Assembly: GCA_015065455.1 (NCBI GenBank)
Contig: SVQI01000001.1
Location: forward strand, 61,090-125,089
Source of the DNA: Oscillospiraceae bacterium
Lineage (GTDB): Bacteria > Bacillota > Clostridia > Oscillospirales > CAG-272
Length of the DNA stretch: 64,000 nucleotides
Direction: 5' to 3'
The translations under genes and the position numbers were made by a program. Positions 23,417-62,383 of this stretch are shown here, piece by piece. Below the pieces are notes generated by a model that did no database searches, had not been told where the DNA came from, and saw only the letters and a program-made list of their open reading frames with translations. Numbering within the stretch: position 1 is the stretch's first letter; each line of letters opens with the position of its first letter.

Positions 23417-23424
23417 GTTGTTAA

Positions 23425-32509: not shown

Positions 32510-32944
32510 ATGTTAAACGTTAGAATTATTTGTTGCGGAACTCTTAAAGAACAGTATTTAAAAGATGCGGTAAACGAATACTCAAAAAGACTTTCCGCCT
32601 TTTGCAAGCTTACCGTACAAGAAATCAAGGAAGACACGCTGAACGCCGCATTTTCTGCAGTTTCAAGCTTCAAAGGCTGTAAAATTGCTCTCTGCATCGA
32701 GGGTAAGATGCTGTCGTCGGAAGAACTCGCACGGAAAATTGAATCGCTGACCATAAACGGAACAAGCGATATTGCATTTATAATTGGCGGAAGCGAGGGC
32801 ATTTCTCAGGAAATCAAGGATATGTGCGATATTAAGCTGTCTTTTTCAAAAATGACTTTTCCCCATCAGCTTATGCGCGTTATTTTGCTTGAGCAGATAT
32901 ACAGAGCGTTTACCATTATAAACCACAAGAGTTACCATAAATAA
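32510..32944 (+). CDS. rlmH: 23S rRNA (pseudouridine1915-N3)-methyltransferase RlmH (SPOUT)
   Basis: The C-terminal IGGSEG...LSFSKMTFPHQLMRVILLEQIYRA pattern is typical of RlmH. Confidence 0.85.
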   Translation: MLNVRIICCGTLKEQYLKDAVNEYSKRLSAFCKLTVQEIKEDTLNAAFSAVSSFKGCKIALCIEGKMLSSEELARKIESLTINGTSDIAFIIGGSEGISQEIKDMCDIKLSFSKMTFPHQLMRVILLEQIYRAFTIINHKSYHK

Positions 32945-32963
32945 ATTGCGGAGAATACTAACA

Positions 32964-33266
32964 ATGAAGCTCAATTCACATACAAAACAGCAATTAGTCG
33001 GTCTTGCCGTACTTATACTTATTTTTGCTATGACTATTATGTACAGCAAGGAAATTTTTGAATTCACTTTTATTACGCGTCCCGACAAGGTAGGCTCGCT
33101 TAATTCCTCTCAAACAGATGGGGAAAATAACGGCGTTGTTTCTGATACGGAAAACGGTACAGTCGAAACCGATTCTCCCGCTCCCGATCAAACGGAAGCT
33201 CCGACAGAACAGACTTCGCCCCCCGAAACAAACGCCCCCGATAATAACACACCGGAAACAACATAA
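32964..33266 (+). CDS. Small membrane-anchored protein with a Pro/Thr/Glu-rich tail (hypothetical)
   Basis: One TM helix (LVGLAVLILIFAMTIMY) followed by a low-complexity tail. I prefer the ATG at 32964 over the TTG at 32946. No family recognised. Confidence 0.4.
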   Translation: MKLNSHTKQQLVGLAVLILIFAMTIMYSKEIFEFTFITRPDKVGSLNSSQTDGENNGVVSDTENGTVETDSPAPDQTEAPTEQTSPPETNAPDNNTPETT

Positions 33267-33321
33267 TATACTTATTTTTACATATTTGCTAAATTTTGGA
33301 ACTAAAGAAGGTTAGAAAAAA

Positions 33322-35238
33322 GTGAACTATATTGCAGGACAAGCTGATATAGCAGTAATTGGCGCAGGCCACGCCGGAATTGAAGCGGCATTGGCGGCGG
33401 CAAGACTCGGAATGAAAACTATACTTTTTACAATAAATCTTGACGCGGTGGGCAATATGCCCTGCAATCCCTCGATTGGCGGAACGGGCAAAGGCCACCT
33501 CGTTTACGAAATTGACGCTCTCGGCGGAGAAATGGGATATGCGGCGGATTTAGTTACACTTCAGACGCGTACCCTTAATCTTGGTAAAGGCCCTGCCGTT
33601 CACTCAAAGAGAGTTCAGGCTGACCGTATAAAGTACCGCGAAATTATGAAAAAGACTATCGAGAACACAGAAAATTTGTCTCTCATTCAGGCTGAAATAG
33701 TTGACTTTATTACGGAAGAAGAAAACGGCAATAAGAAAATTACCGCAGTCATAACCAATATGGGTGCTGTATGGAATGTAAAGGCGGCAATCGTTTGCGC
33801 GGGTACTTTTTTGAACGGTAAGGTAATTACCGGTGAATGCGCATACGCTTCGGGTCCCGACGGAATGTTGCCTGCAACCAAGCTCACCGACGCTCTTATC
33901 AGAGAGAATATAGAGGTATACCGCTTTAAAACGGGTACTCCCCCTCGCGTACACGCCGACACGGTCGACTTTTCCGAGCTTGAAATACAGAACGGCGACG
34001 AGAATACTTCCCCGTTTTCTTCAAGAACGGATACTGAATACTATAAAAATATAAAGCAGGTTCCCTGCCACGTAGTATATACGTCAGGCATCACACATGG
34101 CATTATAAAAGACAATCTTCACCGTTCGCCCTTGTATTCGGGTGTAATTAAGGGTACCGGCCCCCGCTACTGCCCCAGTATTGAAGATAAAGTCGTCAGA
34201 TTTTCCGACAAAGAACGCCATCAGCTGTTTGTTGAGCCTTGCGGAAAAGACACAAAAGAGCTGTACATACAAGGCTTTTCATCATCTTTGCCCGAGGAAG
34301 TACAGATAAAAATGCTTCACTCACTCAAGGGCTTTGAAAATGCGCAGATGATGAGAACGGCATACGCCATTGAATACGACTGCATTAACCCCACTCAGCT
34401 TTACCCGACGCTTGAATTTAAGTCTATATCGGGACTTTACGGCGCAGGACAGTTTAACGGAACAAGCGGATACGAGGAAGCGGCGGCTCAGGGACTTATT
34501 GCAGGTATAAACGCGGTTTTGAAGATAAGAAACGAAGAACCGCTGATTTTGACACGCGATTCATCATATATAGGTACACTCATTGACGATATCGTAACAA
34601 AAGGCACGAACGAGCCTTACAGAATGATGACCTCGCGCTCAGAATACAGACTTCTTCTCCGTCAGGATAATGCCGACTTCAGACTTACTCCCATAGGCTA
34701 TAAGCTTGGTCTTATAAACGAGGAAAGATACGAGGCATATCTTGAAAAACAGAAATTGATAAACGAAGAGGTCGAAAGAGCATTAAAAACAACGATTTCT
34801 CCGACTGATTTGCTTAACGAAATACTTGAACAAAACGGCACGACTCCGGTCACGACAGGCATTAAATTAGCCGACCTTTTGCGCCGTCCTCAGCTTAATT
34901 ATTCAATCCTTGCCCCCGTTGATAAAACGAGAAAGGAATTGCCCATAGCTATAATGAACTGCGCTGAGGTTATTATAAAATACGACGGATATATCAAAAG
35001 ACAGCTTGCAGAGGTTCAGAAATTTGCCAAAACAGAAGCTATAAAGCTCCCCGGTAACCTTGACTATTCGGAAATTAAAGGACTTCGCATAGAGGCAAGA
35101 CAAAAGCTTAACCAGATAAAGCCTGAAAACATCGGTCAGGCATCAAGAATAAGCGGTGTCAGCCCCGCTGATATTACAGTTTTGCTTATTTACTGTCAGC
35201 AAAACCGCAGACAAAACGAGGTAGACAAAAATGACTGA
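33322..35238 (+). CDS. mnmG: tRNA uridine 5-carboxymethylaminomethyl modification enzyme MnmG (GidA)
   Basis: FAD-binding motif VIGAGHAGIEAA. Length and the following rsmG both fit. GTG start. Confidence 0.95.
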   Translation: MNYIAGQADIAVIGAGHAGIEAALAAARLGMKTILFTINLDAVGNMPCNPSIGGTGKGHLVYEIDALGGEMGYAADLVTLQTRTLNLGKGPAVHSKRVQADRIKYREIMKKTIENTENLSLIQAEIVDFITEEENGNKKITAVITNMGAVWNVKAAIVCAGTFLNGKVITGECAYASGPDGMLPATKLTDALIRENIEVYRFKTGTPPRVHADTVDFSELEIQNGDENTSPFSSRTDTEYYKNIKQVPCHVVYTSGITHGIIKDNLHRSPLYSGVIKGTGPRYCPSIEDKVVRFSDKERHQLFVEPCGKDTKELYIQGFSSSLPEEVQIKMLHSLKGFENAQMMRTAYAIEYDCINPTQLYPTLEFKSISGLYGAGQFNGTSGYEEAAAQGLIAGINAVLKIRNEEPLILTRDSSYIGTLIDDIVTKGTNEPYRMMTSRSEYRLLLRQDNADFRLTPIGYKLGLINEERYEAYLEKQKLINEEVERALKTTISPTDLLNEILEQNGTTPVTTGIKLADLLRRPQLNYSILAPVDKTRKELPIAIMNCAEVIIKYDGYIKRQLAEVQKFAKTEAIKLPGNLDYSEIKGLRIEARQKLNQIKPENIGQASRISGVSPADITVLLIYCQQNRRQNEVDKND

Positions 35239-35956
35239 TTACAGCAACTTGATAAAAGATATATTTTCTGAAAACGGCCTTGACGGTTTGCTTAATACGC
35301 CCGTTTTGGAAAAATTTAACATTCTCATTGACCGTATGCTCACAGTCAACGAAAAAATGAACATTACCTCTATAACAGACGGCGAGGACGTTATTCTCAA
35401 GCATATTGCTGACTCGGCAACGGTAGTAAGATATATACCAAAAAATGCAAAACTGCTTGACGTCGGCACGGGCGGAGGCTTCCCTTCACTTCCAATTGCA
35501 ATTTTGCGCCCCGACGTATCAGTATATGGGCTTGACAGCACCGCAAAAAAGCTTAAATACATTGATGAAACGGCAGAGCTTCTTTCTCTTGATAATTTAA
35601 AAACTATTTCCGGCAGAGCTGAAGTTTTTGGAAAGAGCGTAAATTACAGAGAAAGATTTGACGTTGTTACTGCAAGAGCGGTCGCAAGTCTTAACGTTCT
35701 TACCGAGCTTTGTTTGCCTTTTGTTAAGCTTGGCGGTTTATTTATATCAATGAAGGGCAGTTCAGCGGCTGATGAAATAGCACTTGCAAGAAGCGGCGTT
35801 ATTCAACTTGGCGGAAGCAAATTCGAGGATATTGAGTTTACTCTGCACTATAATGACAAGGTGATGCAAAGACATCTCGTTATCTCCAAAAAAACTAAAA
35901 ACACCCCCGATTCTTTCCCCAGAATATACAGCCGTATTGCAAAAAAACCTTTATAA
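35231..35956 (+). CDS. rsmG: 16S rRNA (guanine527-N7)-methyltransferase RsmG (GidB)
   Basis: SAM motif LDVGTGGGFPSLPIAI. The gene overlaps the mnmG stop by 8 nt. Confidence 0.9.
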   Translation: MTDYSNLIKDIFSENGLDGLLNTPVLEKFNILIDRMLTVNEKMNITSITDGEDVILKHIADSATVVRYIPKNAKLLDVGTGGGFPSLPIAILRPDVSVYGLDSTAKKLKYIDETAELLSLDNLKTISGRAEVFGKSVNYRERFDVVTARAVASLNVLTELCLPFVKLGGLFISMKGSSAADEIALARSGVIQLGGSKFEDIEFTLHYNDKVMQRHLVISKKTKNTPDSFPRIYSRIAKKPL

Positions 35957-35988
35957 GCCTTAATTAATTTACTTTTGTTTAAATTTTA

Positions 35989-36026
35989 AGAATAAAACAG
36001 CTTTTTTCTGTTTTATTCTTTTTTTA
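35989..36026 (+). terminator. Intrinsic terminator after rsmG
   Basis: AGAATAAAACAG-ctttttt-CTGTTTTATTCT followed by TTTTTTT. Confidence 0.8.
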
Positions 36027-36162
36027 TTTAAATTTATTATAATATAGCTCAGCTTAAATTATTTTTCATCAAAACAAATTATTTTCCACCATCTGTTTTA
36101 CGAGAATTTTTTTATTTCCCATATGATAAGATTTTCTTGCTAAAATAAAGGAGGAATAAAAA

Positions 36163-37026
36163 ATGAATACACTTTACAAAAACCCGTTCAGAAGAATTGA
36201 GGCAAACGAAAAAATACCCCCACAACAAAAAAAGGATATGGTCATTACAGTCGAAACCGACAGACTCTTCCCTAACCCGTCACAACCAAGGTTTATATTT
36301 GAGGACGAGCCTTTGCTGCGCCTTGCCGACAGTATACGAAGATACGGGATACTTCAACCGCTTTCTGTAAGAGTGTCCGACCGTAATTCTAACAATTCAG
36401 AACCGTCGTATCAAATTATTGCAGGTGAAAGAAGATGGCGTGCCGCAAGGATAATAGGTCTTAAAGAAGTTCCGTGCATAGTTTTTGACATTGACAGTCA
36501 AAAATCGGCAGAGCTTGCAATAATCGAAAACATTCAGAGAGAAGATTTAAATATTTTTGAGCAAGCGGCTGCTATTGCCTCTCTTATTGACATTTACGGT
36601 CTTACGCAGGAGCAGGCAGCAAAACAACTTTCGTCAAGCCAATCTTATATTGCAAACAAGCTGCGCATTTTGAAGCTTACACCAAAAGAACGTACGGAAA
36701 TTATAAAACACAAGCTTACAGAAAGACATGCCCGCGCGCTTTTAAAGATAGACGACCCCGAAACAAGACTTGAAACTATTGCATACATAGCATCAAAAGA
36801 ATTAAATGTCAGCGCTACAGAAAAATATATAGATTTGCTTTTGTCGCCCAAACAAGAAGAAACTGTCGACAACAGACAGGTTAAGGCTGTATTAAAGGAT
36901 TTAAGATTCTTTTACAACTCGGTCGACAGAGCTGTTTGTATACTGAAAAATTGCGGTATAGGAGTAGTTACCGAGAAAAAAGAAAGCAAAAGCGAAACGG
37001 AAATTACAATTCGCATTCCCCATTAA
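36163..37026 (+). CDS. noc: ParB-family protein, Noc-like paralogue
   Basis: ParB box IIAGERRWRAA plus an HTH region. The position between rsmG and soj matches Firmicute noc. Assigning Noc rather than a second ParB is inference. Confidence 0.75.
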   Translation: MNTLYKNPFRRIEANEKIPPQQKKDMVITVETDRLFPNPSQPRFIFEDEPLLRLADSIRRYGILQPLSVRVSDRNSNNSEPSYQIIAGERRWRAARIIGLKEVPCIVFDIDSQKSAELAIIENIQREDLNIFEQAAAIASLIDIYGLTQEQAAKQLSSSQSYIANKLRILKLTPKERTEIIKHKLTERHARALLKIDDPETRLETIAYIASKELNVSATEKYIDLLLSPKQEETVDNRQVKAVLKDLRFFYNSVDRAVCILKNCGIGVVTEKKESKSETEITIRIPH

Positions 37027-37033
37027 GTTACAA

Positions 37034-37049
37034 TGTTTCACGTGGAACA
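37034..37049. promoter_or_regulatory. parS-like site (15 of 16 matches)
   Basis: TGTTTCACGTGGAACA versus the Firmicute parS consensus TGTTNCACGTGAAACA. It lies between noc and soj. Confidence 0.75.
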
Positions 37050-37079
37050 TTATCCCCCTACCCTTTTGTTTTACGCCAT

Positions 37080-37095
37080 TGTTTCACGTGAAACA
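37080..37095. promoter_or_regulatory. parS site (perfect consensus)
   Basis: TGTTTCACGTGAAACA is a perfect 16-bp palindrome matching the parS consensus, 46 bp from the first site. Confidence 0.85.
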
Positions 37096-37143
37096 TCACG
37101 TTTAGTGCAATATGTAGAATATTGCTGTTGGAAGGATTTTCAG

Positions 37144-37172
37144 TTGACAACAATCACCTTGGCTGATATAAT
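37144..37172 (+). promoter_or_regulatory. Putative soj-spo0J promoter
   Basis: TTGACA, a 17-nt spacer, then TATAAT, just downstream of the parS pair. Confidence 0.55.
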
Positions 37173-37206
37173 AATATAAGTAAGAATTTTCTCGGAGGAA
37201 GCCAAA

Positions 37207-37971
37207 GTGGGAAAAATAATAACGTTTGCCAACCAAAAAGGCGGTGTCGGTAAGACCACGTCCGCCGTAAATATTGCCGCAGAGGCAGGTTTGGCAGGCA
37301 AAAAGGTTTTATTAGTTGACAACGACCCTCAGGGCAACGCGACAAGCGCCGTTGGACTTTTTGACAAACGAAACATAAAATACTCTACGTACAGCACCAT
37401 AATCGAACCCGAAACCGTTCGCAACGCCGTTCACAAAACTGCTTACAAAAATTTGGACGTTATGCCGTCTAATATGAACCTTGCAGGCGCAGAAATTGAG
37501 ATAATTGAGTTCAACGACAGACACAAAAGATTAAAAAACGCGCTTGACCAGATAAAAGACGATTACGACTACATATTTATAGACTGCCCTCCCACCCTTG
37601 GACTCTTGACAGTGAATGCACTCGTTGCATCTGACGGAATTATAATTCCTATGCAGTGCGAATATTTTGCTCTCGAAGGATTGGCACAGCTTTCTGTCTC
37701 AATCAAAAAAGTAAAACAGATGTACAACCCGTCTCTCGAGCTTGTGGGCATACTGATTACTATGTATAACGGCAGACTCAACTTGTCAATTCAGGTTATG
37801 TCGGAGCTAAAAAAATATTATGCAGACAAGCTGTTTAAGACGGTTATTTCAAGAAACGTAAGACTCAGCGAAGCGCCAAGTTATGGAAAGCCGATTAAAT
37901 ACTTTGATAAGTACTCAAAAGGCTCTTTAAGCTACGCTGAGGTTACACAAGAAATTTTCGAAAGAATTTAA
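37207..37971 (+). CDS. soj: Chromosome partitioning ATPase ParA/Soj
   Basis: Deviant Walker A NQKGGVGKTT. GTG start lies after GGAGGAAG. Confidence 0.9.
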   Translation: MGKIITFANQKGGVGKTTSAVNIAAEAGLAGKKVLLVDNDPQGNATSAVGLFDKRNIKYSTYSTIIEPETVRNAVHKTAYKNLDVMPSNMNLAGAEIEIIEFNDRHKRLKNALDQIKDDYDYIFIDCPPTLGLLTVNALVASDGIIIPMQCEYFALEGLAQLSVSIKKVKQMYNPSLELVGILITMYNGRLNLSIQVMSELKKYYADKLFKTVISRNVRLSEAPSYGKPIKYFDKYSKGSLSYAEVTQEIFERI

Positions 37972-37980
37972 GGGGATATT

Positions 37981-38868
37981 ATGGCTAAGGAAAAGGGGTC
38001 AGGCAGAGGTCTTGACGCGATTTTTATTGATAATTATGAAATGGAATCGGACAAAACACAGGGCGTTACCACACTGCGCTTGAGCGATATCGAGCCCGAG
38101 CCGACACAGCCGCGTTCGATTTTTGATCACGAACCGCTTGAAGAGCTTGCATCTTCAATCGCAACACACGGATTATTGCAGCCCATCGTTGTAAGAGAGG
38201 GCGGCAACGGATATTATAAGATTATCGCTGGTGAAAGGCGCTGGAGAGCTTCAAAAATGGCAGGTCTTACAGAAGTGCCCGTTATTATTATTGAAGCTGA
38301 CGACAGAAAAGCCGCAGAACTTTCACTTATAGAAAACTTGCAGAGAGAAAACCTTAACCCAATCGAAGAAGCATCGGCTTTTAAAGCATTGATTGAGGAA
38401 TATGACCTGACTCAAGAGGAAGTTTCTTCCAGAATTGGTAAAAGCAGGTCAGCTGTTGCAAACTCTATGCGCTTACTCGACCTTCCAAAAGAAGTATTGG
38501 AGCTCGTTAAGGGCAACGACCTTTCAGCAGGACACGCGAGAGCCTTGCTTGGCTTGACAAACAGAGCAATTATGCCCGAGGTTGCAAAAAAAGTAATCGC
38601 GAAAGGGCTTTCGGTAAGACTTACCGAGGATTTAGTACGTTCTTTGAACAAAAAAGAGGCTTTTGCAAATAAAGAAGAAGACGTAATCACCGAAGTTTCG
38701 GTTAACTACATCGCAGATCTTGAAAAAAGAGTTGCATCACATATAGGCAGAATCATTAAGATTCGCGAAAAAGGAAAGAAAAAAAGACTGGAAATTGAAT
38801 ACAGCGACAATTCTGACCTTGAAAATATTATCAAAAAGCTTTGCGGCAGTACGTTTTTTGATGATTGA
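37981..38868 (+). CDS. spo0J: Chromosome partitioning protein ParB/Spo0J
   Basis: ParB box IIAGERRWRAS plus HTH. The gene follows soj. Confidence 0.9.
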   Translation: MAKEKGSGRGLDAIFIDNYEMESDKTQGVTTLRLSDIEPEPTQPRSIFDHEPLEELASSIATHGLLQPIVVREGGNGYYKIIAGERRWRASKMAGLTEVPVIIIEADDRKAAELSLIENLQRENLNPIEEASAFKALIEEYDLTQEEVSSRIGKSRSAVANSMRLLDLPKEVLELVKGNDLSAGHARALLGLTNRAIMPEVAKKVIAKGLSVRLTEDLVRSLNKKEAFANKEEDVITEVSVNYIADLEKRVASHIGRIIKIREKGKKKRLEIEYSDNSDLENIIKKLCGSTFFDD

Positions 38869-39377
38869 TGTTTTTTACAGAATCGAGGTATTGTTATATG
38901 ATGATAAAAATTAACCTTCCCGACTTTTCATTTTTTACAAATTACGACCCCCGAAGCCTTACGATGATTTTTTCCGCCTTTCTTATAGGAATCGTTATAG
39001 CATCGGCGGCCACGATATACAGACAGCTTTTCTTAGGCGGAATCGTGCGCAACGTTCTTTCAAAAAAAGCATTATCCATAGACACCGCGCTGACTCTTGA
39101 AGAATTGGGATATAAGAAAAATAATATTTTTATAAAACTTGCACTCCGAAAGAAATCGACGTTCAGAAAGACCGTACACGCCGAAACAAACGAACAAGGC
39201 AAAACGGTATACTACATTCCCGAAGATATCTCGGCAAGAGAAGAAATAAGATTCCGCAAAAAAGGAAACGGAATCGCATGGATAGCAGTGGGAGTTATAG
39301 TTTTCACAGCTGCCGCATTTGCCGCGCTCACACTTGTTCCTTTCTTTTCAGAAGAAATTAAAAACATTATTTCCTAA
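38868..39377 (+). CDS. Hypothetical membrane protein (two TM helices)
   Basis: The ORF overlaps the spo0J stop (TGATG). An alternative ATG at 38898 has a GAGG RBS. TM helices lie near both ends. No family recognised. Confidence 0.45.
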   Translation: MFFTESRYCYMMIKINLPDFSFFTNYDPRSLTMIFSAFLIGIVIASAATIYRQLFLGGIVRNVLSKKALSIDTALTLEELGYKKNNIFIKLALRKKSTFRKTVHAETNEQGKTVYYIPEDISAREEIRFRKKGNGIAWIAVGVIVFTAAAFAALTLVPFFSEEIKNIIS

Positions 39378-39402
39378 CCTACACTGAATCGAGGTATATG
39401 AA

Positions 39403-40239
39403 ATGAACAACAACATTCAAGCAAGAACTCCCACAAGAAGAAAAAGACCACCTCAAAAGAAGTACAACAAAACAGGCAGACTTTTGCTCGTTATGGCGGT
39501 AGCTTCATTGTTAGCAATACTCGTAATATTTATTGTTGGATTTATTATAGGATACAGATACATTACGGTAAAAACAGACGACGGAACTATTAAATATTTT
39601 GGCACCGTTGATGCTACCGGTATGCTGAAAAAAGGCACTCTTTATTTCTCAAACGGAAACAAAGGTCTGGTTGACGGCAAAAAGAGTACAATAACCTATA
39701 CAAACGGCGACGTTTATACCGGCGGATTATCCCAGCTTCAGAAAAACGGCGAGGGAACACTGAAATATAAGAACGGAGACGTTTACGAGGGTGGATTTAA
39801 GGACAATCAGTTCTCGGGAAAAGGCGTATTTAAATACAAAAACGGAGACGTTTACGAGGGCGAATATAAAGAAGGTCTTATGGACGGAGAAGGAAAATAC
39901 ACCTGGTCCGACGGCTCTTCTTACGAGGGTGAATTTAAAGCAAACAAGCGTAACGGCCTCGGAAAATTTACAATAACCGATAGCTCATACTACGAAGGCA
40001 GCTACGTGAATGATGCAAAAGAAGGCAAGGGTAAGTATGTTTTTGAAAACGGCGACGTTTACGAAGGCGACTACAAAGCCGACATCAGAACAGGCAAAGG
40101 CACGTACACCTGGGCAAACGGTGAATGCTATACGGGTGATTTTGTAAACAACGATATGCACGGCTACGGCAAATACACATGGCCAAGCGGCAGAGTCTAC
40201 GAAGGCAAATTCCATCAGGGAAAAATTGTTGTTGAATAA
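39403..40239 (+). CDS. MORN-repeat membrane-anchored protein
   Basis: One N-terminal TM helix, then about 9 tandem repeats of Y.NGD.YEG....G...G.G. Confidence 0.75.
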   Translation: MNNNIQARTPTRRKRPPQKKYNKTGRLLLVMAVASLLAILVIFIVGFIIGYRYITVKTDDGTIKYFGTVDATGMLKKGTLYFSNGNKGLVDGKKSTITYTNGDVYTGGLSQLQKNGEGTLKYKNGDVYEGGFKDNQFSGKGVFKYKNGDVYEGEYKEGLMDGEGKYTWSDGSSYEGEFKANKRNGLGKFTITDSSYYEGSYVNDAKEGKGKYVFENGDVYEGDYKADIRTGKGTYTWANGECYTGDFVNNDMHGYGKYTWPSGRVYEGKFHQGKIVVE

Positions 40240-40248
40240 TAGAAATTT

Positions 40249-40281
40249 AATGCGCTGTTTTAACAAACAGCGCATTTTTTA
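40249..40281 (+). terminator. Intrinsic terminator after the MORN-repeat gene
   Basis: AATGCGCTGTTT-taac-AAACAGCGCATT running into TTTTTT. Confidence 0.75.
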
Positions 40282-40287
40282 TATTAT

Positions 40288-40960
40288 GTTGTCGGGTCGG
40301 AGGGAGAGATAATTGTTAATTATTTGATTGCAATATTGTTTGTTTAAACCGTTCATTTTTCTCTCCCTCAGTCAAAAACAAGTTTTTGACAGCTCCCTCG
40401 TCAGATGGAGCTAAAAGATACATTTTTAAAAAATCGGGACGTCGAGGAAGGGGTTCCCCGAAACGCACGAAGTAAGTTTTGAGGGTTCTCGTGTGCGCCG
40501 TCCCCTACCAAATTAGGCAATACCACTTTTGCAAACCAAGGGGGGTACCGAGGGAGGAACGCCCTCGGCCGTTTGAAAGGGAGGGGTCAAGGGGAGGGGA
40601 GGATCGGAACTCCCTCTCCCCTTTGTGCCTTCTTTGGTTACTTTCTTGGCACGCAAGAAAGTAACGTAAAAAAAGAAAAGACAATATTATCTGTTTAAAA
40701 CGTTTGCTTTTCTCTCCCTCAGTCAAAAACAAGTTTTTGACAGCGTCTACTGCGGTTCGGTCACGGCTCGGCTCTGACATCACACCGTGATGTCATTCAC
40801 TCCCTCGCCGCCGCTTCGCTACCTCGTCAGATGGAGCCGAGAATTACGCGCTTCGCGCGTAAAAAGACACAGAATGTCAGCTTCTTTGCTCCCAAACCCA
40901 CACAAGAGGAGAACTTTTAAAAAAGTGCCCTCTTGACTCCCTCAAAACTTTTAATAAAAA
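40288..40960 (+). repeat. Mosaic intergenic repeat, locus C (5'-truncated N, L, S, N-arm fragment, degenerate K, T, H)
   Basis: 40291-40666 aligns almost base for base with 19466-19840. Confidence 0.9.
40531..40666 (+). repeat. Module S copy 3
   Basis: Same architecture. Invariant hairpin at 40637-40665. Confidence 0.7.
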
Positions 40961-40983
40961 ATATTATATTATTTTTTTCAAAT

Positions 40984-41018
40984 CAAAAGACATTATTCAA
41001 AAGAATAATGTCTTTTTT
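40984..41018. terminator. Hairpin terminator at the 3' end of the XRE-membrane gene (stronger T-run on the + strand)
   Basis: AAGACATTATTC-aaaa-GAATAATGTCTT. TTTTTT follows on the + strand and TTTTGATTT on the - strand. Confidence 0.55.
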
Positions 41019-41022
41019 CTAT

Positions 41023-41631
41023 TTATTTTCTTTTTCCAAGCATAGACCACATAAATATTATCATTTGCCCCGGTATTCCAACCAGAAACAACATCTTTAT
41101 ATCTATGCCAAATACGTAAAACGTCAAATAAAATGCAAGAAGCGTTGACCACACCAATATAGATATAATCATGTAATTCGTTCTCTTGCTGAACCATATA
41201 GAATTAAACACAAGCCACACAATAGCAGAAACCGGTATCGCATACACAAAAGGAAGCATATGCGCGTACATAATCTTCGTCGTTAAATCAAGAATAACAA
41301 ATATTAAGGTTGCAACAAACCACACAAGCGCAACTGAAAGGCTCATTATATCTATCTGCTTGCGCTTTCTCACACTCTCATCTATAATCGGATTCTGTAC
41401 AGCTTTACTGTGCTTTTCCTCAACCAAATAGTCAAGCGTTACGTCAAACAGATCTGCAATATCTTTTAAAACAACAACGTCGGGTATTGATTCTGCCCTT
41501 TCCCATTTAGATACGGCTTTGTCGGAATAATTCAGTTTTTCGGCAACCTGAAGCTGTGTCATTCCCTTTGCCATGCGAAGCTCGGTTATGTTTTTTGCAA
41601 TTATACGCTTCATATCGTACATATCAACCAT
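41023..41631 (-). CDS. XRE-family HTH regulator fused to a multi-pass membrane domain
   Basis: N-terminal HTH_3 pattern (LRMAKGMTQLQVAEKLNYSDKAVSKWERAESIPD) followed by about 4-5 hydrophobic helices. Confidence 0.75.
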   Translation of the reverse strand: MVDMYDMKRIIAKNITELRMAKGMTQLQVAEKLNYSDKAVSKWERAESIPDVVVLKDIADLFDVTLDYLVEEKHSKAVQNPIIDESVRKRKQIDIMSLSVALVWFVATLIFVILDLTTKIMYAHMLPFVYAIPVSAIVWLVFNSIWFSKRTNYMIISILVWSTLLAFYLTFYVFGIDIKMLFLVGIPGQMIIFMWSMLGKRK

Positions 41632-41835
41632 AACTTATCCCCCGTAAAACGTTTTAGTCTGTTCTTCTTATCAATTACACAAACAAACTCTAAAACATAT
41701 TTTACCATACTTTTCACAATAAATCAAGTCCAAAAAATCAGCCTATTAAGCCACTCTCTCTTGACAGTAGAGTTGCCTCTCTACTACTCTACTACACTGT
41801 TTTTAAACAGTATAGCCGTTTACTTCAATAGTAGG

Positions 41836-41864
41836 TTGATATTATTATCCCAGATATATAGAAT
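41836..41864 (+). promoter_or_regulatory. Putative promoter of the acyltransferase/GT8 operon
   Basis: TTGATA, a 17-nt spacer, then TAGAAT. A 7-bp-stem palindrome ACTGTTT-TT-AAACAGT lies at 41796-41811 just upstream and could be an operator. Confidence 0.45.
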
Positions 41865-41908
41865 AAAAGTATATTTTTTAAAAGCCAACCGAAAGGCGCT
41901 ATGCGTTT

Positions 41909-42700
41909 ATGAAAGAAAATACACCCAAAAAAACAATATACTACACCGACGAGCTGAACGACGAATTTTCCAAGGCAATAATAACACCAAAGAAAATTGA
42001 CTCAAGCTGGAAATACGTCGACGACCGTCCGTTCAAAAAATTTACCCACTTCTTTTGGTACAGAATAATTGCTACCCCTCTTGCTTGGGTATTTTTAAAA
42101 ATAAAATTCGGTCATAAGATAATTGGCCGAGAGCTTTTACCCAAGAAAAAGAAAGACAAAAGAAACGGCTTTTTTATATACGGAAATCACACGCAGGATA
42201 TAGCCGATGCTTTGATACCCTCAATGCTCTGCTTTCCAAAAGACGTATACGTAGTCGTTCACCCCAACAACGTTTCAATGCCTTTTCTCGGCAGAATTAC
42301 GCCAAGCATGGGCGCCTTACCGCTTCCCGAGGACATGGGCGGTTTCAGAAATCTGCTTTCTGCAATAAAGAAAAGAGTAAACGACGGAAACGCGCTCTGT
42401 ATTTATCCCGAGGCACATATATGGCCGTACTACACGTCTATCCGCCCCTTCCCTGATGACTCCTTCGGCTATCCCGTCAATCAGAAAAAGCCGGTGTACT
42501 GTTTTACAAACACGTATCAAAAGACAAAAAGCAAAGTAAGGATAGTAACATATATCGACGGCCCGTTTTTGCCCGACGAAACCAAGTCCCGCGCAGAACA
42601 GAAGAAAGAATTAAGAGATATAGTATATAAAACAATGACCGAACGGTCAAAAAACAGCAACATTAAGGTAATCGAATACATCAGGAGAAAAGATAAATGA
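41909..42700 (+). CDS. Lysophospholipid-acyltransferase (PlsC/LPLAT)-like protein
   Basis: YGNHTQDIAD and IYPEAHIW blocks are present. It is a paralogue of the C-terminal domain of the 597-aa protein downstream, which carries NHFNAFD and FYPEQSMW. The H(x)4D box is atypical here. Confidence 0.55.
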   Translation: MKENTPKKTIYYTDELNDEFSKAIITPKKIDSSWKYVDDRPFKKFTHFFWYRIIATPLAWVFLKIKFGHKIIGRELLPKKKKDKRNGFFIYGNHTQDIADALIPSMLCFPKDVYVVVHPNNVSMPFLGRITPSMGALPLPEDMGGFRNLLSAIKKRVNDGNALCIYPEAHIWPYYTSIRPFPDDSFGYPVNQKKPVYCFTNTYQKTKSKVRIVTYIDGPFLPDETKSRAEQKKELRDIVYKTMTERSKNSNIKVIEYIRRKDK

Positions 42701-43551
42701 TAAACATACTGTACGCAGGAAACGATAAGGTTTTCGACGGAATGTTGACTTCCGCATTATCTATACTCAAGCGCACAAAAACAAAAGAGCCCTTTTGTTT
42801 TTACGTTTTCACAATGGACGTTTCCCACATCAAGCCCGAGTATCTACCCATCAACGAAAGACAGCTCTCTTTTTTTGAAAAAGTAATAAAGGAATACAAC
42901 CAAGACAACTCGGTTAAAATAATCGACGTAACCGACCTATACAAAGAAGAATTTGCAAATTGCCCCAACGAGCAGGCATACTGCTCTCCATATACGCTCA
43001 TTCGTCTTTTTGCAGACAAAATAGACTGTATTCCTCAAAAAATTCTGTATCTTGACGCTGACATTATGTTCAACAGAGATATTACTCTGCTCTATAACTA
43101 CGATATAGAAGAATACGAGTATGCTGCTTCTCCCGACCACTACGGCAAATACTTAATCAGCCCCCATTACATTAACGCGGGTGTATTGCTGTTAAATATG
43201 GATATGATAAGAAAAACAAAGCTTTTGGAAAAAGCAAGGCAGCTTATAAAACAGAAAAAACTTGTCTTTGCTGACCAGAGTGCGATTATACGCAGTACGA
43301 CAAAAAAATACGTACTTCCGCAGAGATTCAACGACCAAAAATTTCTTCACAAATGGACGGTTGTCAGACATTTCAGCAAAAGGCTGTTCTGGCTTCCCTA
43401 TCCGCACACGGCAAACATAAAACAATGGCACGTAGACCTTGTGCATACGGTGTTTAAATATCATCAATTTGACGATATTCTTGATGAATACCTTTACCTA
43501 AAGAAGATTTACCAAAAAGAACAGCTCAAACAAGGAGAAAAAGTAATATGA
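42697..43551 (+). CDS. Glycosyltransferase family 8
   Basis: GT8 pattern: the N-terminal NILYAGNDKVF...S.LSIL block, DxD (YLDADIMF), INAGVLLLN and ADQSAI. Start overlaps the previous stop. Confidence 0.75.
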   Translation: MINILYAGNDKVFDGMLTSALSILKRTKTKEPFCFYVFTMDVSHIKPEYLPINERQLSFFEKVIKEYNQDNSVKIIDVTDLYKEEFANCPNEQAYCSPYTLIRLFADKIDCIPQKILYLDADIMFNRDITLLYNYDIEEYEYAASPDHYGKYLISPHYINAGVLLLNMDMIRKTKLLEKARQLIKQKKLVFADQSAIIRSTTKKYVLPQRFNDQKFLHKWTVVRHFSKRLFWLPYPHTANIKQWHVDLVHTVFKYHQFDDILDEYLYLKKIYQKEQLKQGEKVI

Positions 43552-45341
43552 ATAAAGAAATAATTCCGATTTTCTACGCAGTTGACGACGATTTTGCAAA
43601 ATACGCGGCAGTTTCAATTCAGTCATTAACAGATAACGCTGACAAATCAAGAAAATATCATATATACGTTTTGAATTCGGGTATTTCCGAGGAAAACAAA
43701 ACAGCGCTCAAAAAATACGAGAACGAGGTGTTTTCAATTTCCTTTCCCGACGTAACTTCTTGGCTCGATTCGGTTAACGATAAGCTTCCGGTTCGCGATT
43801 ATTATACAAAAACCACTTATTACAGACTGTTTATTCCCGATATGTATCCCGAATACGAAAAGGCTGTATATATCGACAGCGACACCGTTGTCGTCGGTGA
43901 CATATCCGAGCTTTACGATCACGACTTAAGGGATAATTACGTAGCTGCAGCGCACGAACAGGTAATGCTTCAGGAAAAAGTATATGGAGACTACGTAGAA
44001 AAGGTATTAGGCATTGACCGCAACACCTATTTTAACGCGGGCGTATTAGTGCTTAACTGCCATGCATTCAGAGAAAAGCACTTGCTTGTAAGATTTATCG
44101 AGCTTCTATCAGAGTATAACTTTGTTGTAACTCAGGATGAGGATTATCTTAACATTATCTGCAAGGACAGAGTATTATGGGTTAACTCTGCTTGGAATGC
44201 AGAAGTGTTTGGAACTCTCCCCTGCGAAGAAAACGAAATGAAAATAATTCACTACATTATGGTTTCAAAGCCCTGGCACTACGTTGACTGCCGCCTGGGT
44301 AATTATTTCTGGGAATACACATCAAAAACGTCTTTTGCGGACCTTATAAAGAAAGAATTTGAATCATACACAGATGAACAGAGAAAAAATGACTCTGATT
44401 CCTGTAACCGCTTAATGCAATCAGCTATAAATGAAATAAACAGACCCGACAACTATCTGAACCAACAAAGAAAAGCACAAGCACCCGACAGAATAGAGGT
44501 TTTAAGAAGAATTGAAGCGCTTGAAAACTCAGGCGTATTTGATAAAGACGTCGAAGACGACCCGCCGTGTGAAGAATTATCGGCAGACCAGATAGAATAC
44601 GTAAAAAAGACGTTGATTGACAAAGCAAAGACCAAGACCGCTTTTTTTGCAGCAGGACTTTTTGTTAAAAAATTGCTTCGCGATAAACAGATGATAATTA
44701 AAGATATCGTAGGGATAGAGAATTTTAAAGAGCTTAACAGCGGCGCAATTATAACCTGCAACCACTTTAACGCGTTTGACAGCTTTGCTATGCAGATGGC
44801 TTACTACGCATCAGGACAAAAGTCAAGAAAATTTTATAGGGTTATAAGAGAGGGAAACTATATGAGCTTCCCCGGATTTTACGGCTTTTTGATGAGAAAC
44901 TGCGACACACTCCCGCTTTCATCAAGCAAGGCAACGATGATAAAATTTGTTCGCGGCGTAAACGAAATACTGAAGTCTGGTCATTTTATTCTGTTCTATC
45001 CCGAACAGAGCATGTGGTGGAATTACAGAAAACCGAAGCCTTTAAAAGAGGGCGCGTACACGATGGCGGCAAAAAACAACGTGCCTGTTCTTCCCTGCTT
45101 TATAACGATGAAGGATAGCGACGTTATGGGAAAAGACGGATTTTACGTTCAGGAGTATACAATTCATATAGAAAAGCCCATTTACCCTTGCGCAGACAAA
45201 AAGCACAAGGAAAATTGCATCTATATGATGAACAAAAACTACGAAGTGTGGAAGGAAATTTACGAAAGAGAGTACGGTATACCCTTAAAATACACCACAG
45301 CAAAAAAAGAAGAAGCCGAAAACACAGAAAACGCAGGCTAA
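43548..45341 (+). CDS. Fusion protein: N-terminal glycosyltransferase family 8 plus C-terminal LPLAT-like acyltransferase
   Basis: GT8 blocks (IFYAVDDDFAKYAAVSIQSL, YIDSDTVVVGD, FNAGVLVLN, TQDEDYLN), then acyltransferase blocks (CNHFNAFD with H(x)4D, FYPEQSMWW). Confidence 0.75.
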   Translation: MNKEIIPIFYAVDDDFAKYAAVSIQSLTDNADKSRKYHIYVLNSGISEENKTALKKYENEVFSISFPDVTSWLDSVNDKLPVRDYYTKTTYYRLFIPDMYPEYEKAVYIDSDTVVVGDISELYDHDLRDNYVAAAHEQVMLQEKVYGDYVEKVLGIDRNTYFNAGVLVLNCHAFREKHLLVRFIELLSEYNFVVTQDEDYLNIICKDRVLWVNSAWNAEVFGTLPCEENEMKIIHYIMVSKPWHYVDCRLGNYFWEYTSKTSFADLIKKEFESYTDEQRKNDSDSCNRLMQSAINEINRPDNYLNQQRKAQAPDRIEVLRRIEALENSGVFDKDVEDDPPCEELSADQIEYVKKTLIDKAKTKTAFFAAGLFVKKLLRDKQMIIKDIVGIENFKELNSGAIITCNHFNAFDSFAMQMAYYASGQKSRKFYRVIREGNYMSFPGFYGFLMRNCDTLPLSSSKATMIKFVRGVNEILKSGHFILFYPEQSMWWNYRKPKPLKEGAYTMAAKNNVPVLPCFITMKDSDVMGKDGFYVQEYTIHIEKPIYPCADKKHKENCIYMMNKNYEVWKEIYEREYGIPLKYTTAKKEEAENTENAG

Positions 45342-45342
45342 G

Positions 45343-45760
45343 GAGGGTACCGAGAAAAAAACATTTTAACCCCCAAAAAACAAAAAGTATAACCTAACTT
45401 TCCATCTTTTGCAAACCAAGGAGGGTTCCGAGGGAGGAACGCCCTCGGCCGTTTGAAAGGGAGGGGTCAAGGGGAGGGGAGGATCGGAACTCTCCTCCCC
45501 TTTGTGCCTTCTTTGGTTACTTTCTTGGCACGCAAGAAAGTAACGTAAAAAAGAAAAGACAATATTATCTGTTTGAAACGTTTGCTTTTCTCTCCCTCAG
45601 TCATTTTCTAACGAAAATGCCAGCTCCCTCGTCAGATGGAGCCGAGAATTACGCGCTTCGCGCGTAAAAAGGCACAGAATGTCAGGAGCTTCGCTCCCGA
45701 ACCCACACAAAAGGAGCGCTTTTAAAAAAGCGCCCTCTTGACTCCCCCAAAACTTTTAAA
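45343..45760 (+). repeat. Mosaic intergenic repeat, locus D (S with an alternative leader, N right arm, T, H)
   Basis: Starts 2 nt after the stop codon of the GT8-acyltransferase fusion, with no terminator in between. The S module is near-identical to locus C. Confidence 0.9.
45411..45545 (+). repeat. Module S copy 4
   Basis: The G-rich hairpin AAGGGGAGGGGAG-gatcggaa-CTCTCCTCCCCTT pairs fully with one G-T. Invariant hairpin at 45516-45544. Confidence 0.7.
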
Positions 45761-45771
45761 TATTAAATAAT

Positions 45772-45806
45772 ACAAAAAGGAGCTTTTAAAAGCTCCTTTT
45801 TATTTT
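45772..45806. terminator. Bidirectional terminator (serves ymdB on the minus strand)
   Basis: Perfect 26-nt palindrome AAAAGGAGCTTTTAAAAGCTCCTTTT flanked by T-runs on both strands. Confidence 0.75.
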
Positions 45807-45814
45807 TATTCTGT

Positions 45815-46591
45815 TTAGAATTTTATTCTTCTTATGCCCACTATTTTTGTTTCGTTACCTGTCGTGTCAAAATCAAAAATAACACCGCTGAATTCAATTT
45901 CGCCCTCGGCAAACTCAAATCTTACAGGCATTTTCGTTATCATTTTTTCAATAATAATCTCGCTTTTTACTCCAAGAATAGAATTCTTCGGACCGCACAT
46001 TCCAAGGTCGGTTATATATCCGCTCCCCTTTGGCAATATCTGCTCGTCTGCCGTCTGAACGTGAGTATGTGTTCCGAATATTCCGTGTATCCGTCCGTCA
46101 AAATATCTTGCCAACGCATATTTTTCTCCCGTAGCTTCAGCGTGAATATCAAGCAAGGCTACGTCATACTTCCCTTTTTCTCTTTCAAGCACGGCTTCCA
46201 CCGCACCAAAAGGACAAGAAAGACTTTCCATATACACAGTTCCCGACACGTTCATAACCATAACTTTAACACCGGAACAATCAACTACCGTATATCCGTT
46301 CCCTGCCGAACGGCTTGGAAAATTGAGCGGTCTTACAATATACTTGCTCGAGTCAAGAAACTCTCTCAGCGAATTTTTCTGCCAGATATGGTTCCCGCCC
46401 GTTATAACGTCAACTCCATAGTCGAGTATCTGACGCGCCATTTCGGCATCAAGTCCGTTTCCTCGGCTTGCATTCTCTCCGTTTGCCACAACAAAATCTA
46501 TTTTTTCTTGCTTTCGGTAGCTCCACAGCCTTTTTCCAAGCTCCTCAACAGCCAACGGACTGACTATATCGCCAAGCGCCAAAATCTTCAT
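45815..46591 (-). CDS. ymdB: YmdB-family metallophosphoesterase (2',3'-cyclic-nucleotide phosphodiesterase family)
   Basis: MKILALGDIVS, GENASRGNG and GGNHIW motifs. The gene is immediately downstream of rny, as in B. subtilis. Confidence 0.85.
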   Translation of the reverse strand: MKILALGDIVSPLAVEELGKRLWSYRKQEKIDFVVANGENASRGNGLDAEMARQILDYGVDVITGGNHIWQKNSLREFLDSSKYIVRPLNFPSRSAGNGYTVVDCSGVKVMVMNVSGTVYMESLSCPFGAVEAVLEREKGKYDVALLDIHAEATGEKYALARYFDGRIHGIFGTHTHVQTADEQILPKGSGYITDLGMCGPKNSILGVKSEIIIEKMITKMPVRFEFAEGEIEFSGVIFDFDTTGNETKIVGIRRIKF

Positions 46592-55694: not shown

Positions 55695-56117
55695 ATAAAA
55701 CAAAAAGTATAACCTAACCTTCCATCTTTCGCAAACGATGGGGGTGCAAAGGGGGTAATCCCCCTTTGTCGTTTGGTGGTTGGGGGTCGAGGGGGAGGAG
55801 GAATCGGAACCTCCGCCCCCTTGTGCCTTCTTTGGTTACTTTCTTGGCACGCAAGAAAGTAACATAAAAAAGAAAAAGACAATATTATTTAGCCAAACAA
55901 TACGTTTTAAAACAAAAAAACGCTCTCGCGTTTTTCAAAGGAGCACAAACAATCAGGAGCTTCGCTCCCGAACCCACACAAAAGGAGCACTTTTGAAAAA
56001 GTGCCCTCTTGACTCCCTCAAAACTTTTAATAAAAAATTATATATTATTTTTTAAGATAATATTTTAATTACGCTTTTTGAAAAAAGCTCCTTTGGAATC
56101 CGCAAAAACTTTTATTA
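55695..56117 (+). repeat. Mosaic intergenic repeat, locus E (S with an alternative leader, partial T, H, H')
   Basis: It shares the leader ACAAAAAGTATAACCTAAC(C/T)TTCCATCTT with locus D. It has the invariant hairpin at 55835-55863 and H modules at 55980-56117. Confidence 0.9.
55731..55864 (+). repeat. Module S copy 5 (most divergent)
   Basis: Hairpin 1 is replaced by the unrelated CAAAGGGGG-taat-CCCCCTTTG. The G-rich hairpin is GGGGGAGGAGG-aatcggaa-CCTCCGCCCCC. Invariant hairpin at 55835-55863. Confidence 0.7.
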
Positions 56118-56120
56118 AAA

Positions 56121-56153
56121 CAAAAAAAGACGGCTGTTTAAACCGTCTTTTTA
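56121..56153. terminator. Bidirectional terminator (serves ackA on the minus strand)
   Basis: AAGACGG-ctgtttaaa-CCGTCTT flanked by A7 upstream and T-rich sequence downstream. Confidence 0.7.
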
Positions 56154-60107: not shown

Positions 60108-60163
60108 TTCTCTAATTCAAAAAAGTTTTGCAAATTTGACCTCCTTATGAGGAGATAAAATTA

Positions 60164-60262
60164 TGCGTGTTCGATTGTCATCCTTGAGCAAGCCGCCGCG
60201 AGATTCTTCGCTACGCTCGAGAATGACAACGCGGCGGCGCAGCGAAGGATCCCGAACACGCA
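60164..60262 (-). repeat. Module K copy (orientation b, inverted relative to its downstream flank)
   Basis: The 79-nt interior equals the reverse complement of the interior of 62647-62745 at every position I checked by hand. Confidence 0.85.
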
Positions 60263-60343
60263 ATTTAACGCGCTCCCGAACCCACACCAAAGGTGCTTTT
60301 TGAAAAAAACTCCTTTGGAATCCGCAAAAACTTTTAATAAAAA
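60164..60343 (+). repeat. Mosaic intergenic repeat, locus G (K in inverted orientation, then an H/H' hybrid)
   Basis: 60164-60262 is the exact reverse complement of the K core at 62648-62744. The downstream flank AATTTAACGCGCTCCCGAACCC is in the same orientation as at locus H. Confidence 0.9.
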
Positions 60344-60459
60344 TTTTTTATATTATTTTTTCAAAATAATTATCTTTTGTTTTCCTGCGCCGACAGCGTT
60401 TACTCTTAAAAAATTCACATAAAATTTAACAAATTTTAGTGTATTTCTTCCAAAAGGTC

Positions 60460-62296: not shown

Positions 62297-62383
62297 CATT
62301 ACGGGCGGATAGCAAAAACCACCCTACTCACAGATAAGGTCAAAGGATAGAAATTGAACAGAGACGAATTTGCACTAACTTTT

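Follow-up and report, generated by a model that had tools for sequence, protein, structure and literature searches.

Gene content and layout of the locus

The window described herein is a stretch of 64,000 nucleotides (nt) from an uncultured Oscillospiraceae bacterium (assembly GCA_015065455.1, contig SVQI01000001.1, positions 61,090 to 125,089 of the forward strand). It harbors a four-gene cluster that is bracketed by two nearly identical direct repeats, which lie in the intergenic blocks E (left) and F (right). The cluster is very probably a resident and vertically inherited one, and the spacers on its two sides were most likely colonized later by dispersed structured repeats. It consists of a divergently oriented regulator of the XRE type and an operon of three genes that code for an acyltransferase (AT), a glycosyltransferase of family 8 (GT8), and a fusion of both. 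The genes are arranged as follows, with amino acid (aa) identities referring to the orthologs in L087, a contig of a sister species.

39403-40239, + strand, MORN-repeat protein, left flank, downstream of gidA-gidB-noc-parA-parB (Pfam MORN; 90% aa identity)
41023-41631, - strand, XRE-family helix-turn-helix regulator with a hydrophobic C-terminal half, divergent from the operon (Pfam HTH_3; 82% aa identity)
41909-42700, + strand, PlsC-type acyltransferase (Pfam PF01553; 76% aa identity)
42697-43551, + strand, GT8 glycosyltransferase (Pfam PF01501; 80% aa identity)
43548-45341, + strand, GT8-acyltransferase fusion (Pfam PF01501 and PF01553)
45815-46591, - strand, ymdB, right flank, followed by rny, the gene of RNase Y (Pfam YmdB, RNase_Y_N)

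To the left of the cluster lies gidA-gidB-noc-parA-parB-hypothetical-MORN, to the right ymdB-rny. A first, sequence-only reading of this DNA had placed exactly four genes between the repeats, namely, an XRE-membrane regulator, an acyltransferase, a GT8, and a GT8-acyltransferase fusion. The count of open reading frames (ORFs) agrees, and Pfam confirms each call. Inside the cluster, the Pfam domains are HTH_3, Acyltransferase, and Glyco_transf_8 alone; those of the flanks are MORN, ParB, YmdB, and RNase Y. In NCBIfam, none of the four cluster proteins has a specific name, and neither Pfam nor the gene tables of the locus revealed an integrase, transposase, or other recombinase in or beside the cluster. 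The fusion protein has 4304 homologs, mostly ~60% identical, from Clostridia. The AT-GT8-fusion trio is widespread in this class, and in L089 it lies beside a different divergent regulator. The operon probably modifies the cell envelope.

Both blocks are composed of repeat modules that are designated S, T, U, H, and R. Block E and its edges have the following layout.

40249-40276, no strand assigned, hairpin that terminates the MORN gene and borders block E on the left (terminator scan; equivalent in L087 at 7405-7432)
40280-40984, + strand, block E, mosaic of repeat modules (the blastn alignment to L087 breaks at 40279/40985)
40299-40411, + strand, T unit consisting of GGAGGGAGAGA...TCTCTCCCTCAGTC, a variable hairpin, then CAGCTCCCTCGTCAGATGGAGC (direct repeats; matching units at 19477-19589 and 62456-62570)
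40436-40517, + strand, U module, a GC hairpin GGGACG/CGTCCC resembling repetitive extragenic palindromes (REPs), then CTAC (GTAG on the other strand), with a loop insert of ~55 nt at ~40442-40498
40526-40668, + strand, S module copy E, with closing stem, two covarying hairpins, and an invariant 3' pseudoknot-hairpin block (covariance model, 158.7 bits)
40669-40744, + strand, S extension, which is a second, partial T unit (T'); the near-identical E/F repeat runs to ~40725 (direct repeats, alignment)
40745-40817, + strand, insert of ~73-75 nt in E, partly present in copy C and absent from F (alignment; matches 19905-19947)
40818-40954, + strand, right part of E with a GCUCC...GGAGC hairpin, a CGCGC hairpin, and an H module, which is a covarying hairpin plus a TTGACT box (direct repeats)
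40985-41016, no strand assigned, terminator hairpin of the XRE gene, kept in L087, right edge of block E (terminator scan)

Block F is presumably part of the 3' untranslated region (UTR) of the operon, because it lies between the stop codon of the operon and the shared terminator.

45342-45773, + strand, block F (the blastn alignment to L087 breaks at 45341/45774)
45385-45405, + strand, leader 5' of S, common to copies G and M and not to E or C (alignment, blastn)
45406-45547, + strand, S module copy F (covariance model, 159.9 bits)
45548-45759, + strand, T' unit, CGCGC hairpin, and H module of F (direct repeats, alignment)
45772-45803, no strand assigned, bidirectional terminator of the operon and ymdB, kept in L087 (terminator scan)

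Directly 3' of the stop codon of the fusion gene, positions 45339-45355 contain a fragment of 13-17 nt, AAGGAGGGTACCGAG, that matches the 5' part of S. A full S copy comes 60 nt further on. This fragment may be left over from an earlier copy, or it may mark a site that is preferred as a target.

The direct repeats E and F

The repeats are indeed nearly identical and equally oriented, as had been noticed by eye: 40526-40725 in E and 45406-45603 in F, which comprise the S module and its extension, share 96.5% identity (193 matches, 5 mismatches, 2 gap columns), and the four differences listed in the sequence-only reading all recur in the alignment. That both repeats continue into the same further modules was likewise seen correctly. 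Past a small hairpin that differs between the repeats (GTCAAAAACAAGTTTTTGAC in E versus CATTTTCTAACGAAAATG in F) and the insert found in E only, homology resumes, with 91% identity between 40818-40954 and 45623-45759. Allowing one 75-nt indel, it extends to 40954 in E and 45759 in F. Aligned end to end, 40526-40954 and 45406-45759 show 328 matches, 26 mismatches, and 75 gap columns. The longest perfect runs measure 65, 52, and 45 nt and lie within ~350 nt of ~93% homology. The sequence of the repeats recurs in several independent assemblies, and hence, they are not an assembly artifact.

The similarity of E and F could have been no higher than that of any two S copies. Among the ten pairs formed by the five S copies of the window, however, E-F is the closest, followed by C-E at 89.5%, and the others are 67-70% alike. 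When four copies from outside the window are added, E-F is also the closest of 36 pairs, with 94.6% compared with 90.1%, 89.2%, 88.6%, and 88.5% for the next ones. Other features point to exchange among copies. F is chimeric: the ~20 nt 5' of its S module agree with copies G and M, but in E and C, the end of a U module occupies this place (alignment, blastn). Copy J is a mosaic as well, with a 5' half like that of E and an extension like those of G and K. Since F combines the leader of one subfamily with the body of E, the similarity of E and F most likely stems from local copying or gene conversion between copies that are 4.9 kb apart.

Comparison with related genomes

The nearest nonidentical relative of the fusion protein (82% aa identity) is encoded on L087, which is ENA contig k141_268506. 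L087 is collinear with positions 32826-46396 of the window at 76-80% nt identity and represents a sister species. Its gene order is gidA, gidB, noc, parA, parB, hypothetical, MORN, XRE (minus strand), AT, GT8, fusion, and ymdB. The spacers on both sides of the cluster are short herein: 18 nt lie between the conserved terminator hairpins of the MORN and XRE genes, compared with 705 nt in the window, and the distance from the stop codon of the fusion gene to the conserved bidirectional terminator is 73 nt, compared with 432 nt. Repeat modules were not detectable in L087 by blastn. Hence, the same genes occupy the same place without the repeat blocks, which argues for an ancestral cluster and a later arrival of the repeats. 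The cluster orthologs are 76-83% identical in aa sequence, which is within the range of 58-93% for the flanking genes. In a more distant relative, L009 (YmdB 78%, RNase Y 96%), ymdB is likewise accompanied by an XRE homolog (72%), an acyltransferase, and two GT8 genes. In L009 and the other nearest GTDB species representatives (L007-L009), repeat modules were absent from the 60 kb examined, as judged by blastn and the covariance model.

The sequence-only reading had suggested that the repeats may mark how the four genes were acquired. A mobile or acquired cassette, whose insertion scars would be the repeats (att-like or recombination sites), is extremely unlikely. It would account for repeats of the same orientation that bracket exactly four genes and form the most similar S pair, for the variation in the genes beside ymdB among genus-level relatives, and for the occurrence of the AT-GT8-fusion trio in other contexts in other Clostridia. 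However, the sister species, which is the one close relative available, keeps the cluster in this position and lacks both blocks; relatives of this kind were what the sequence-only reading had itself named as refuting its suggestion. The repeats are also not confined to the ends of the cluster, as modules occur at nine intergenic sites of the window and at more outside, that is, dispersed across the genome. To the left of S, the sequences neighboring E and F differ, and a recombinase is not present. The proposed search of relatives for an empty site with a solo repeat did not yield one: L087 is free of repeats and has the genes, and they are missing from none of the 23-24 conspecific contigs. 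Comparing the composition of the cluster with that of its flanks gives a divided result. The GC content at third codon positions (0.41-0.49, compared with 0.444 +/- 0.041 for the rest of the window), the codon usage (cosine within range, the small membrane regulator excepted), and the divergence of the orthologs are all normal, whereas the total GC content is slightly low, which would favor an acquired cassette.

The low GC content, which amounts to 0.374-0.413 and is 1-2 SDs below the window mean of 0.427 +/- 0.023, is one of several points that weigh against a resident cluster with later repeats. In addition, a single close relative, L087, spans both junctions, and the repeats could have been lost in that lineage; they are missing from the outgroup loci L007-L009 as well. 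A single event that carried a copy of S-T' from one side of the cluster to the other would likewise make E-F the closest of 36 pairs. Finally, the conspecific contigs are consensus assemblies, which cannot show rare deletions or amplifications.

The most likely course of events is the following. In the common ancestor of the window species and the sister species, the cluster was already located between parB-MORN and ymdB-rny, with the divergent XRE-type regulator and the AT-GT8-GT8/AT operon forming a resident chromosomal unit. Noncoding, highly structured mosaic repeats would then have spread in the lineage of the window into many spacers at 3' ends and between convergent genes. The direction of change would, thus, be a gain of repeats and not a loss. 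Two of the colonized spacers would flank the cluster by chance, and the identity of S-T' in E and F would have arisen by local copying or gene conversion. Mobility may have been provided by a mechanism like that of REPs and their REP-associated tyrosine transposases (RAYTs) or like that of miniature inverted-repeat transposable elements (MITEs). The envelope-modification cluster is, on this evidence, inherited vertically and a stable component of the chromosome near the origin. The comparison tells repeats at the borders of a mobile cassette apart from repeats that have merely settled in the spacers on both sides, and mistaking one for the other is a common trap in reading raw sequence.

Strain variation and recombination between the repeats

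Conspecific contigs from other samples are more than 99.9% identical. Their ends recur inside E and F (window positions 40634, 40865, 45425, and 45428), which is how multicopy repeats affect short-read assemblies. The cluster adjoins ymdB in 13 of the 23 contigs with an identical ymdB, and the remaining 10 break in F. Likewise, of 24 contigs with an identical MORN gene, the cluster is present on 11, and the other 13 end in E. A join of MORN to ymdB, which would correspond to a deletion of the cluster, was found in none of these 23-24 contigs.

In physical terms, RecA could plausibly bring about a deletion or duplication, given that the repeats are direct and contain perfect runs of 65, 52, and 45 nt. 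In this respect, the view of the repeats as RecA substrates is reasonable as far as their potential is concerned; deletion or amplification variants were not found among the 23-24 contigs. It is quite improbable that E and F are active at present and that RecA exchange deletes or tandemly amplifies the cluster in a subpopulation, leading to phase variation of the envelope. Such activity would be in line with the identical runs, with a strain polymorphism that is confined to the E repeat within a 20-kb locus, and with a different left context at the edge of another repeat block (block I) in contig L215, where rearrangement at repeats may occur. Repeats of the triplex type have also been tied to local instability in Escherichia coli (PMC4666352). 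Against it, the cluster is lacking from none of the 23-24 conspecific contigs, and L215 may be a chimeric assembly.

The polymorphism is located at 40670-40709, inside the E repeat, where every difference among conspecific contigs over ~20 kb falls. It comprises a 5-nt poly-A indel in three contigs and, in contig L002, nine substitutions and one indel, which lie within ~75 nt of the end of that contig. L215 (ENA ERZ27248351 k141_3135198) is 99.8% identical to positions 62555-64000 of the window. To the left of the junction, an M23 peptidase, AspS, HisS, and a DEAD helicase replace the genes of FBA and an acyl-ACP thioesterase. The junction lies at a truncated T unit at window position 62555, the edge of block I (L215:9150-9480), and represents either a rearrangement of the strain at a repeat or a chimeric assembly.

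The dispersed repeat family

A repeat search across the whole window yielded nine intergenic blocks, which are located at ~300-600, 6950-7220, 19390-20170, 23410-23700, 40280-40985, 45342-45774, 55700-56140, 60160-60370, and 62370-62915. The blocks combine the modules differently from site to site. Each of the nine lies just past a + strand gene, at its 3' end; convergent spacers hold five of them and tandem ones four, and no block is in a divergent promoter region. Apart from the T doublets, whose left arm is inverted, and a flipped R core at 60164-60261, the modules lie on the + strand. All S and U copies are on the + strand, also those S copies that lie outside the window, at 7 kb upstream and 6 kb downstream; this orientation may follow the direction of replication or that of transcription.

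The modules differ in size and architecture. The S module has ~140 nt; its covariance model detects five copies within the window, and four others lie a short distance beyond it or on a second contig from this species. The T module consists of CTCTCCCTCAGTC, a variable hairpin, and CAGCTCCCTCGTCAGATGGAGC, and it forms inverted doublets at 19391-19589 and 62380-62570. The U module contains CCCCTACNNNNTTAGG, which occurs five times in the window, all on the + strand, compared with 0.1 occurrences expected. In these five copies, CTAC directly follows a GC stem of 6-7 bp, and the loop is either 8 nt long or holds the ~55-nt insert. The H module is a hairpin of varying stem sequence with a TTGACT box and resembles a terminator. 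The R module is a near-palindrome of ~100 nt.

Two R palindrome cores of ~98 nt, at 60164-60261 and 62648-62745, form an inverted pair of 100% identity that flanks the genes of FBA and the acyl-ACP thioesterase. The modules around them have the same orientation and are ~86% alike, and the palindrome core has, therefore, flipped between the two sites. In blocks C and E (19620-19676 and 40442-40498), the loop of the U hairpin is occupied by a mini-element of ~55 nt, CGAGGAAGGGGTTCCCCGAAACGCACGAAGTAAGTTTTGAGGG.... In reverse orientation, it is found inside hairpin P3 of the S copies K, J, and M (L212:~960-1010, L214:~16825-16875, and L215:~2290-2340). It is a nested insertion module with a hairpin of its own.

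The distribution of the family is patchy, because L007-L009 have no modules in the 60 kb examined. L020, a metagenome-assembled genome (MAG) of the Oscillospiraceae, contains shorter S-like copies and six T-like units, the hairpin sequences of which differ. Herein, a direct repeat pair of 144 nt with 99% identity (L020:9800-9943 and 12320-12463) contains a short S-like element and brackets a single ORF of 521 aa; the second copy reaches the end of the contig. The picture of genes bracketed by repeats, thus, arises independently in an unrelated MAG. In L059, there is an inverted T pair, and the T-like units again have different hairpin sequences.

Structure of the S module and its 3' core

The S module has the most elaborate structure. 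The consensus fold of five copies (RNAalifold) contains 44 pairs, eight of them with compensatory changes, and is made up of a closing stem with several G-U pairs, two covarying hairpins, and an invariant 3' hairpin. The minimum free energy of copy E is -72.3 kcal/mol for the + strand (z = -5.3) versus -57.8 kcal/mol for the - strand. At the 3' end lies a block of 45 nt, TGCCTTCTTTGGTTACTTTCTTGGCACGCAAGAAAGTAAC, which is identical in S copies that are otherwise just 67-70% alike.

The exact 30-mer of the S hairpin had no match in metagenome contigs. A relaxed hairpin pattern matched at least 120 metagenome loci and nothing in 2.9 million viral contigs. At the metagenome loci, a pentamer upstream of the hairpin is complementary to its loop (GUGCC/GGCAC, GCGGC/GCCGC, GUCGC/GCGAC, GCACC/GGUGC, and GUGGC/GCCAC). 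Pentamer and hairpin are joined by a CUUCUUUGG linker, the UUCUUU of which mirrors the UUUCUU strand of the hairpin, and the pairs of the outer stem covary. Across 91 distinct sequences, in which the inner 8 bp of the hairpin were fixed by the search pattern, the helix between loop and upstream pentamer is 91.9% paired, compared with at most 53% for slid controls. In three of the five pairs of this helix, both partners vary (UA 50/CG 31; GC 72/CG 7/AU 3; CG 46/GC 34). This geometry corresponds to a pseudoknot, in which the linker could form U-A-U and C-G-C triples and, thus, a putative triplex in the major groove. By inspection of the sequence, triplex-compatible blocks are present in copy E at 40579-40623 (G-block, G-block, C-block) and at 40630-40664 (TTCTTT and the CTTTCTTG/CAAGAAAG hairpin, with TTCTTT mirroring TTTCTT).

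The metagenome elements are multicopy: a given sample holds several of them, spread over different loci. Upstream, they are preceded by ORFs that, from translations read by eye, appear to be ordinary housekeeping genes (for example, Asn-tRNA-synthetase-like, glycosyltransferase-like, and efflux-like ones). One subfamily occurs on a chromid of Variovorax paradoxus and a plasmid of Iodobacter. These two are the only matches of this third subfamily among PLSDB plasmids, and neither the S block nor the two other metagenome subfamilies had a match there. In Variovorax (L216:1870-2570; CP063167.1, 173499-174199), an intergenic foldback element of ~700 nt is found. Each of its inverted ends carries an S-type pseudoknot-hairpin core and a REP-like GCCGGG...CCCGGC hairpin, and its center is a triplex-type palindrome, CCCTCTCCC/GGGAGAGGG.

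It is possible, although somewhat doubtful, that these elements constitute one S-core family that spans phyla, with members in low-GC Clostridia, in high-GC bacteria of soils and sediments, and in Betaproteobacteria, and that is defined by a core of ~45 nt with pentamer-loop pairing, a hairpin of 12-13 bp, and a UUCUUU tract. A description of such a family was found neither in Rfam 15 nor in the literature searched. Nothing in the window reaches the gathering score of an Rfam model, and 20 related metagenome loci had no such match except for an unrelated thiamine pyrophosphate riboswitch. Permissive scans gave matches at chance level and a weak one to Clostridiales-2 alone. The S core could be the recognition or structural end of an uncharacterized class of nonautonomous mobile repeats or a widespread module of RNA 3' ends. 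If it is a recognition structure of a transposase or an RNA stability element, it would offer a handle on the spread of small nonautonomous repeats and on genome rearrangement.

That S or the whole block is a functional RNA, such as a 3'-UTR stabilizer, a terminator module, or a small RNA (sRNA), with F acting on the transcript of the GT operon, is unlikely. The fold favors one strand, as seen from its free energies and from the G-U pairs of the closing stem, and it shows compensatory changes, including a pseudoknot that covaries across the 91 sequences. F, furthermore, lies between a stop codon and a terminator, and the subthreshold match concerns the Clostridiales-2 sRNA motif. However, E is located between two convergent terminators, where little transcription is expected, and the S-like copies of L020 are antisense to both neighboring genes. 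The copies are also mosaics with nested inserts, and the S-like domains of Variovorax, as inverted termini, resemble a mobile foldback element.

Three further assignments were considered and rejected. An element derived from tRNA or tmRNA was suspected from the T-loop-like GGAUCGGAACUCC, and ARAGORN detected none. The hammerhead-like CUGACGAG in the T unit has no compatible stems on inspection and no Rfam match. For S as the right end of a TnpB/IS605 element or as an omega-RNA, the sequence diverges right after the hairpin, but the upstream ORFs look like ordinary genes by eye and not like tnpB. Within the window, there is no tnpB ORF either.

Resemblance to known repeat systems

In the way it works, the repeat system would be most like REPs and the bacterial interspersed mosaic elements (BIMEs) built from them, a likeness that does not establish membership. 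REPs are defined by a GTAG or GTGG tetranucleotide at 0-2 nt from a GC-rich hairpin with a basal stem of 7-20 bp and a loop of 2-5 nt, and the REPs/BIMEs of Proteobacteria are mobilized by RAYT/TnpA_REP (PMC6006769). Both systems are extragenic and multicopy, and in both, a GC-rich hairpin with a GTAG/CTAC tag is combined with other conserved motifs into mosaics. Inverted doublets are common to both, here in the form of the T units at 19391-19589 and 62380-62570. Moreover, both favor the 3' ends of genes and convergent spacers, vary by site, and expand in particular lineages. In contrast, the host of the present system belongs to an uncultured lineage of Clostridia, and the U loops have 8 nt or the 55-nt insert, compared with the published 2-5 nt. 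The S module, with ~140 nt, a three-way junction, and a pseudoknot, has no REP counterpart, and S, T, and H lack the tag. A RAYT gene (Y1 HUH) was not found among the genes annotated in the ~82 kb examined.

The BoxC/PIT/TMECO repeats are intrastrand triplex repeats that are associated with local genomic variability (Holder et al. 2015, PMC4666352). Like them, the S elements are dispersed and intergenic and contain three consecutive homopurine/homopyrimidine blocks with short loops. The blocks of S that resemble BoxC/TMECO are GGGAGGGG-TCAA-GGGGAGGGG-loop-CCCTCTCCCC and a TTCTTT that precedes the CTTTCTTG...CAAGAAAG hairpin. Some of the related metagenome elements are triplex-like as well, with CTCTCCC-N4-GGGGAGAG-N-GGGAGAGGG. 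However, block order and sequence differ from BoxC/TMECO, and S adds the covarying pairing of the loop to the upstream pentamer, that is, the pseudoknot.

BOX elements of Streptococcus pneumoniae are modular boxA-boxB-boxC intergenic repeats that are often cotranscribed with neighboring genes. Like them, the present repeats are modular, structured, and intergenic, occur in Firmicutes, and vary in the modules they combine. The two are unrelated in sequence, however, and the modules are more numerous here and contain nested insertions.

The weak Rfam match mentioned above concerns RF02937, Clostridiales-2. The 5' third of S aligns with the first hairpin of this model and its flanks (GGGGGUG-hairpin-CCGUAUUAAGGAG...GUCGAAGGGAAC versus GGAGGGUU-hairpin-CCGUUUGAAAGGG...GUCAAGGGGAGG). 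The second hairpin of the model is missing, and S runs ~80 nt further. The scores of 23.0 and 22.2 bits are under the gathering score of 58.6. Nothing specific was found in the literature on Clostridiales-2, on BIMEs in Clostridia, or on MITEs in Ruminococcaceae. Uncultured gut or rumen Clostridia carry a rich BIME-like mosaic repeat system that fragments metagenome assemblies. The finding of a bracketed cluster is itself ordinary; the repeat family, above all the S core found across phyla, is worth following.

Other features of the window

The window represents core, origin-proximal chromosome with dnaG, rpoD, tig, clpP, clpX, dnaB, ftsH, gidA/B, noc, and parAB. Within the MORN-repeat gene, a DNA periodicity of 69 nt at 39694-40206 reflects the repeats of the protein and is unrelated to the intergenic family. 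At 62963-63692, an ORF of 110-113 aa overlaps that of a HEPN-domain protein of 136 aa, which resembles a toxin-antitoxin pair of the HEPN/MNT type. A PemK toxin gene follows ~6 kb beyond this pair (L214:16120-16593).

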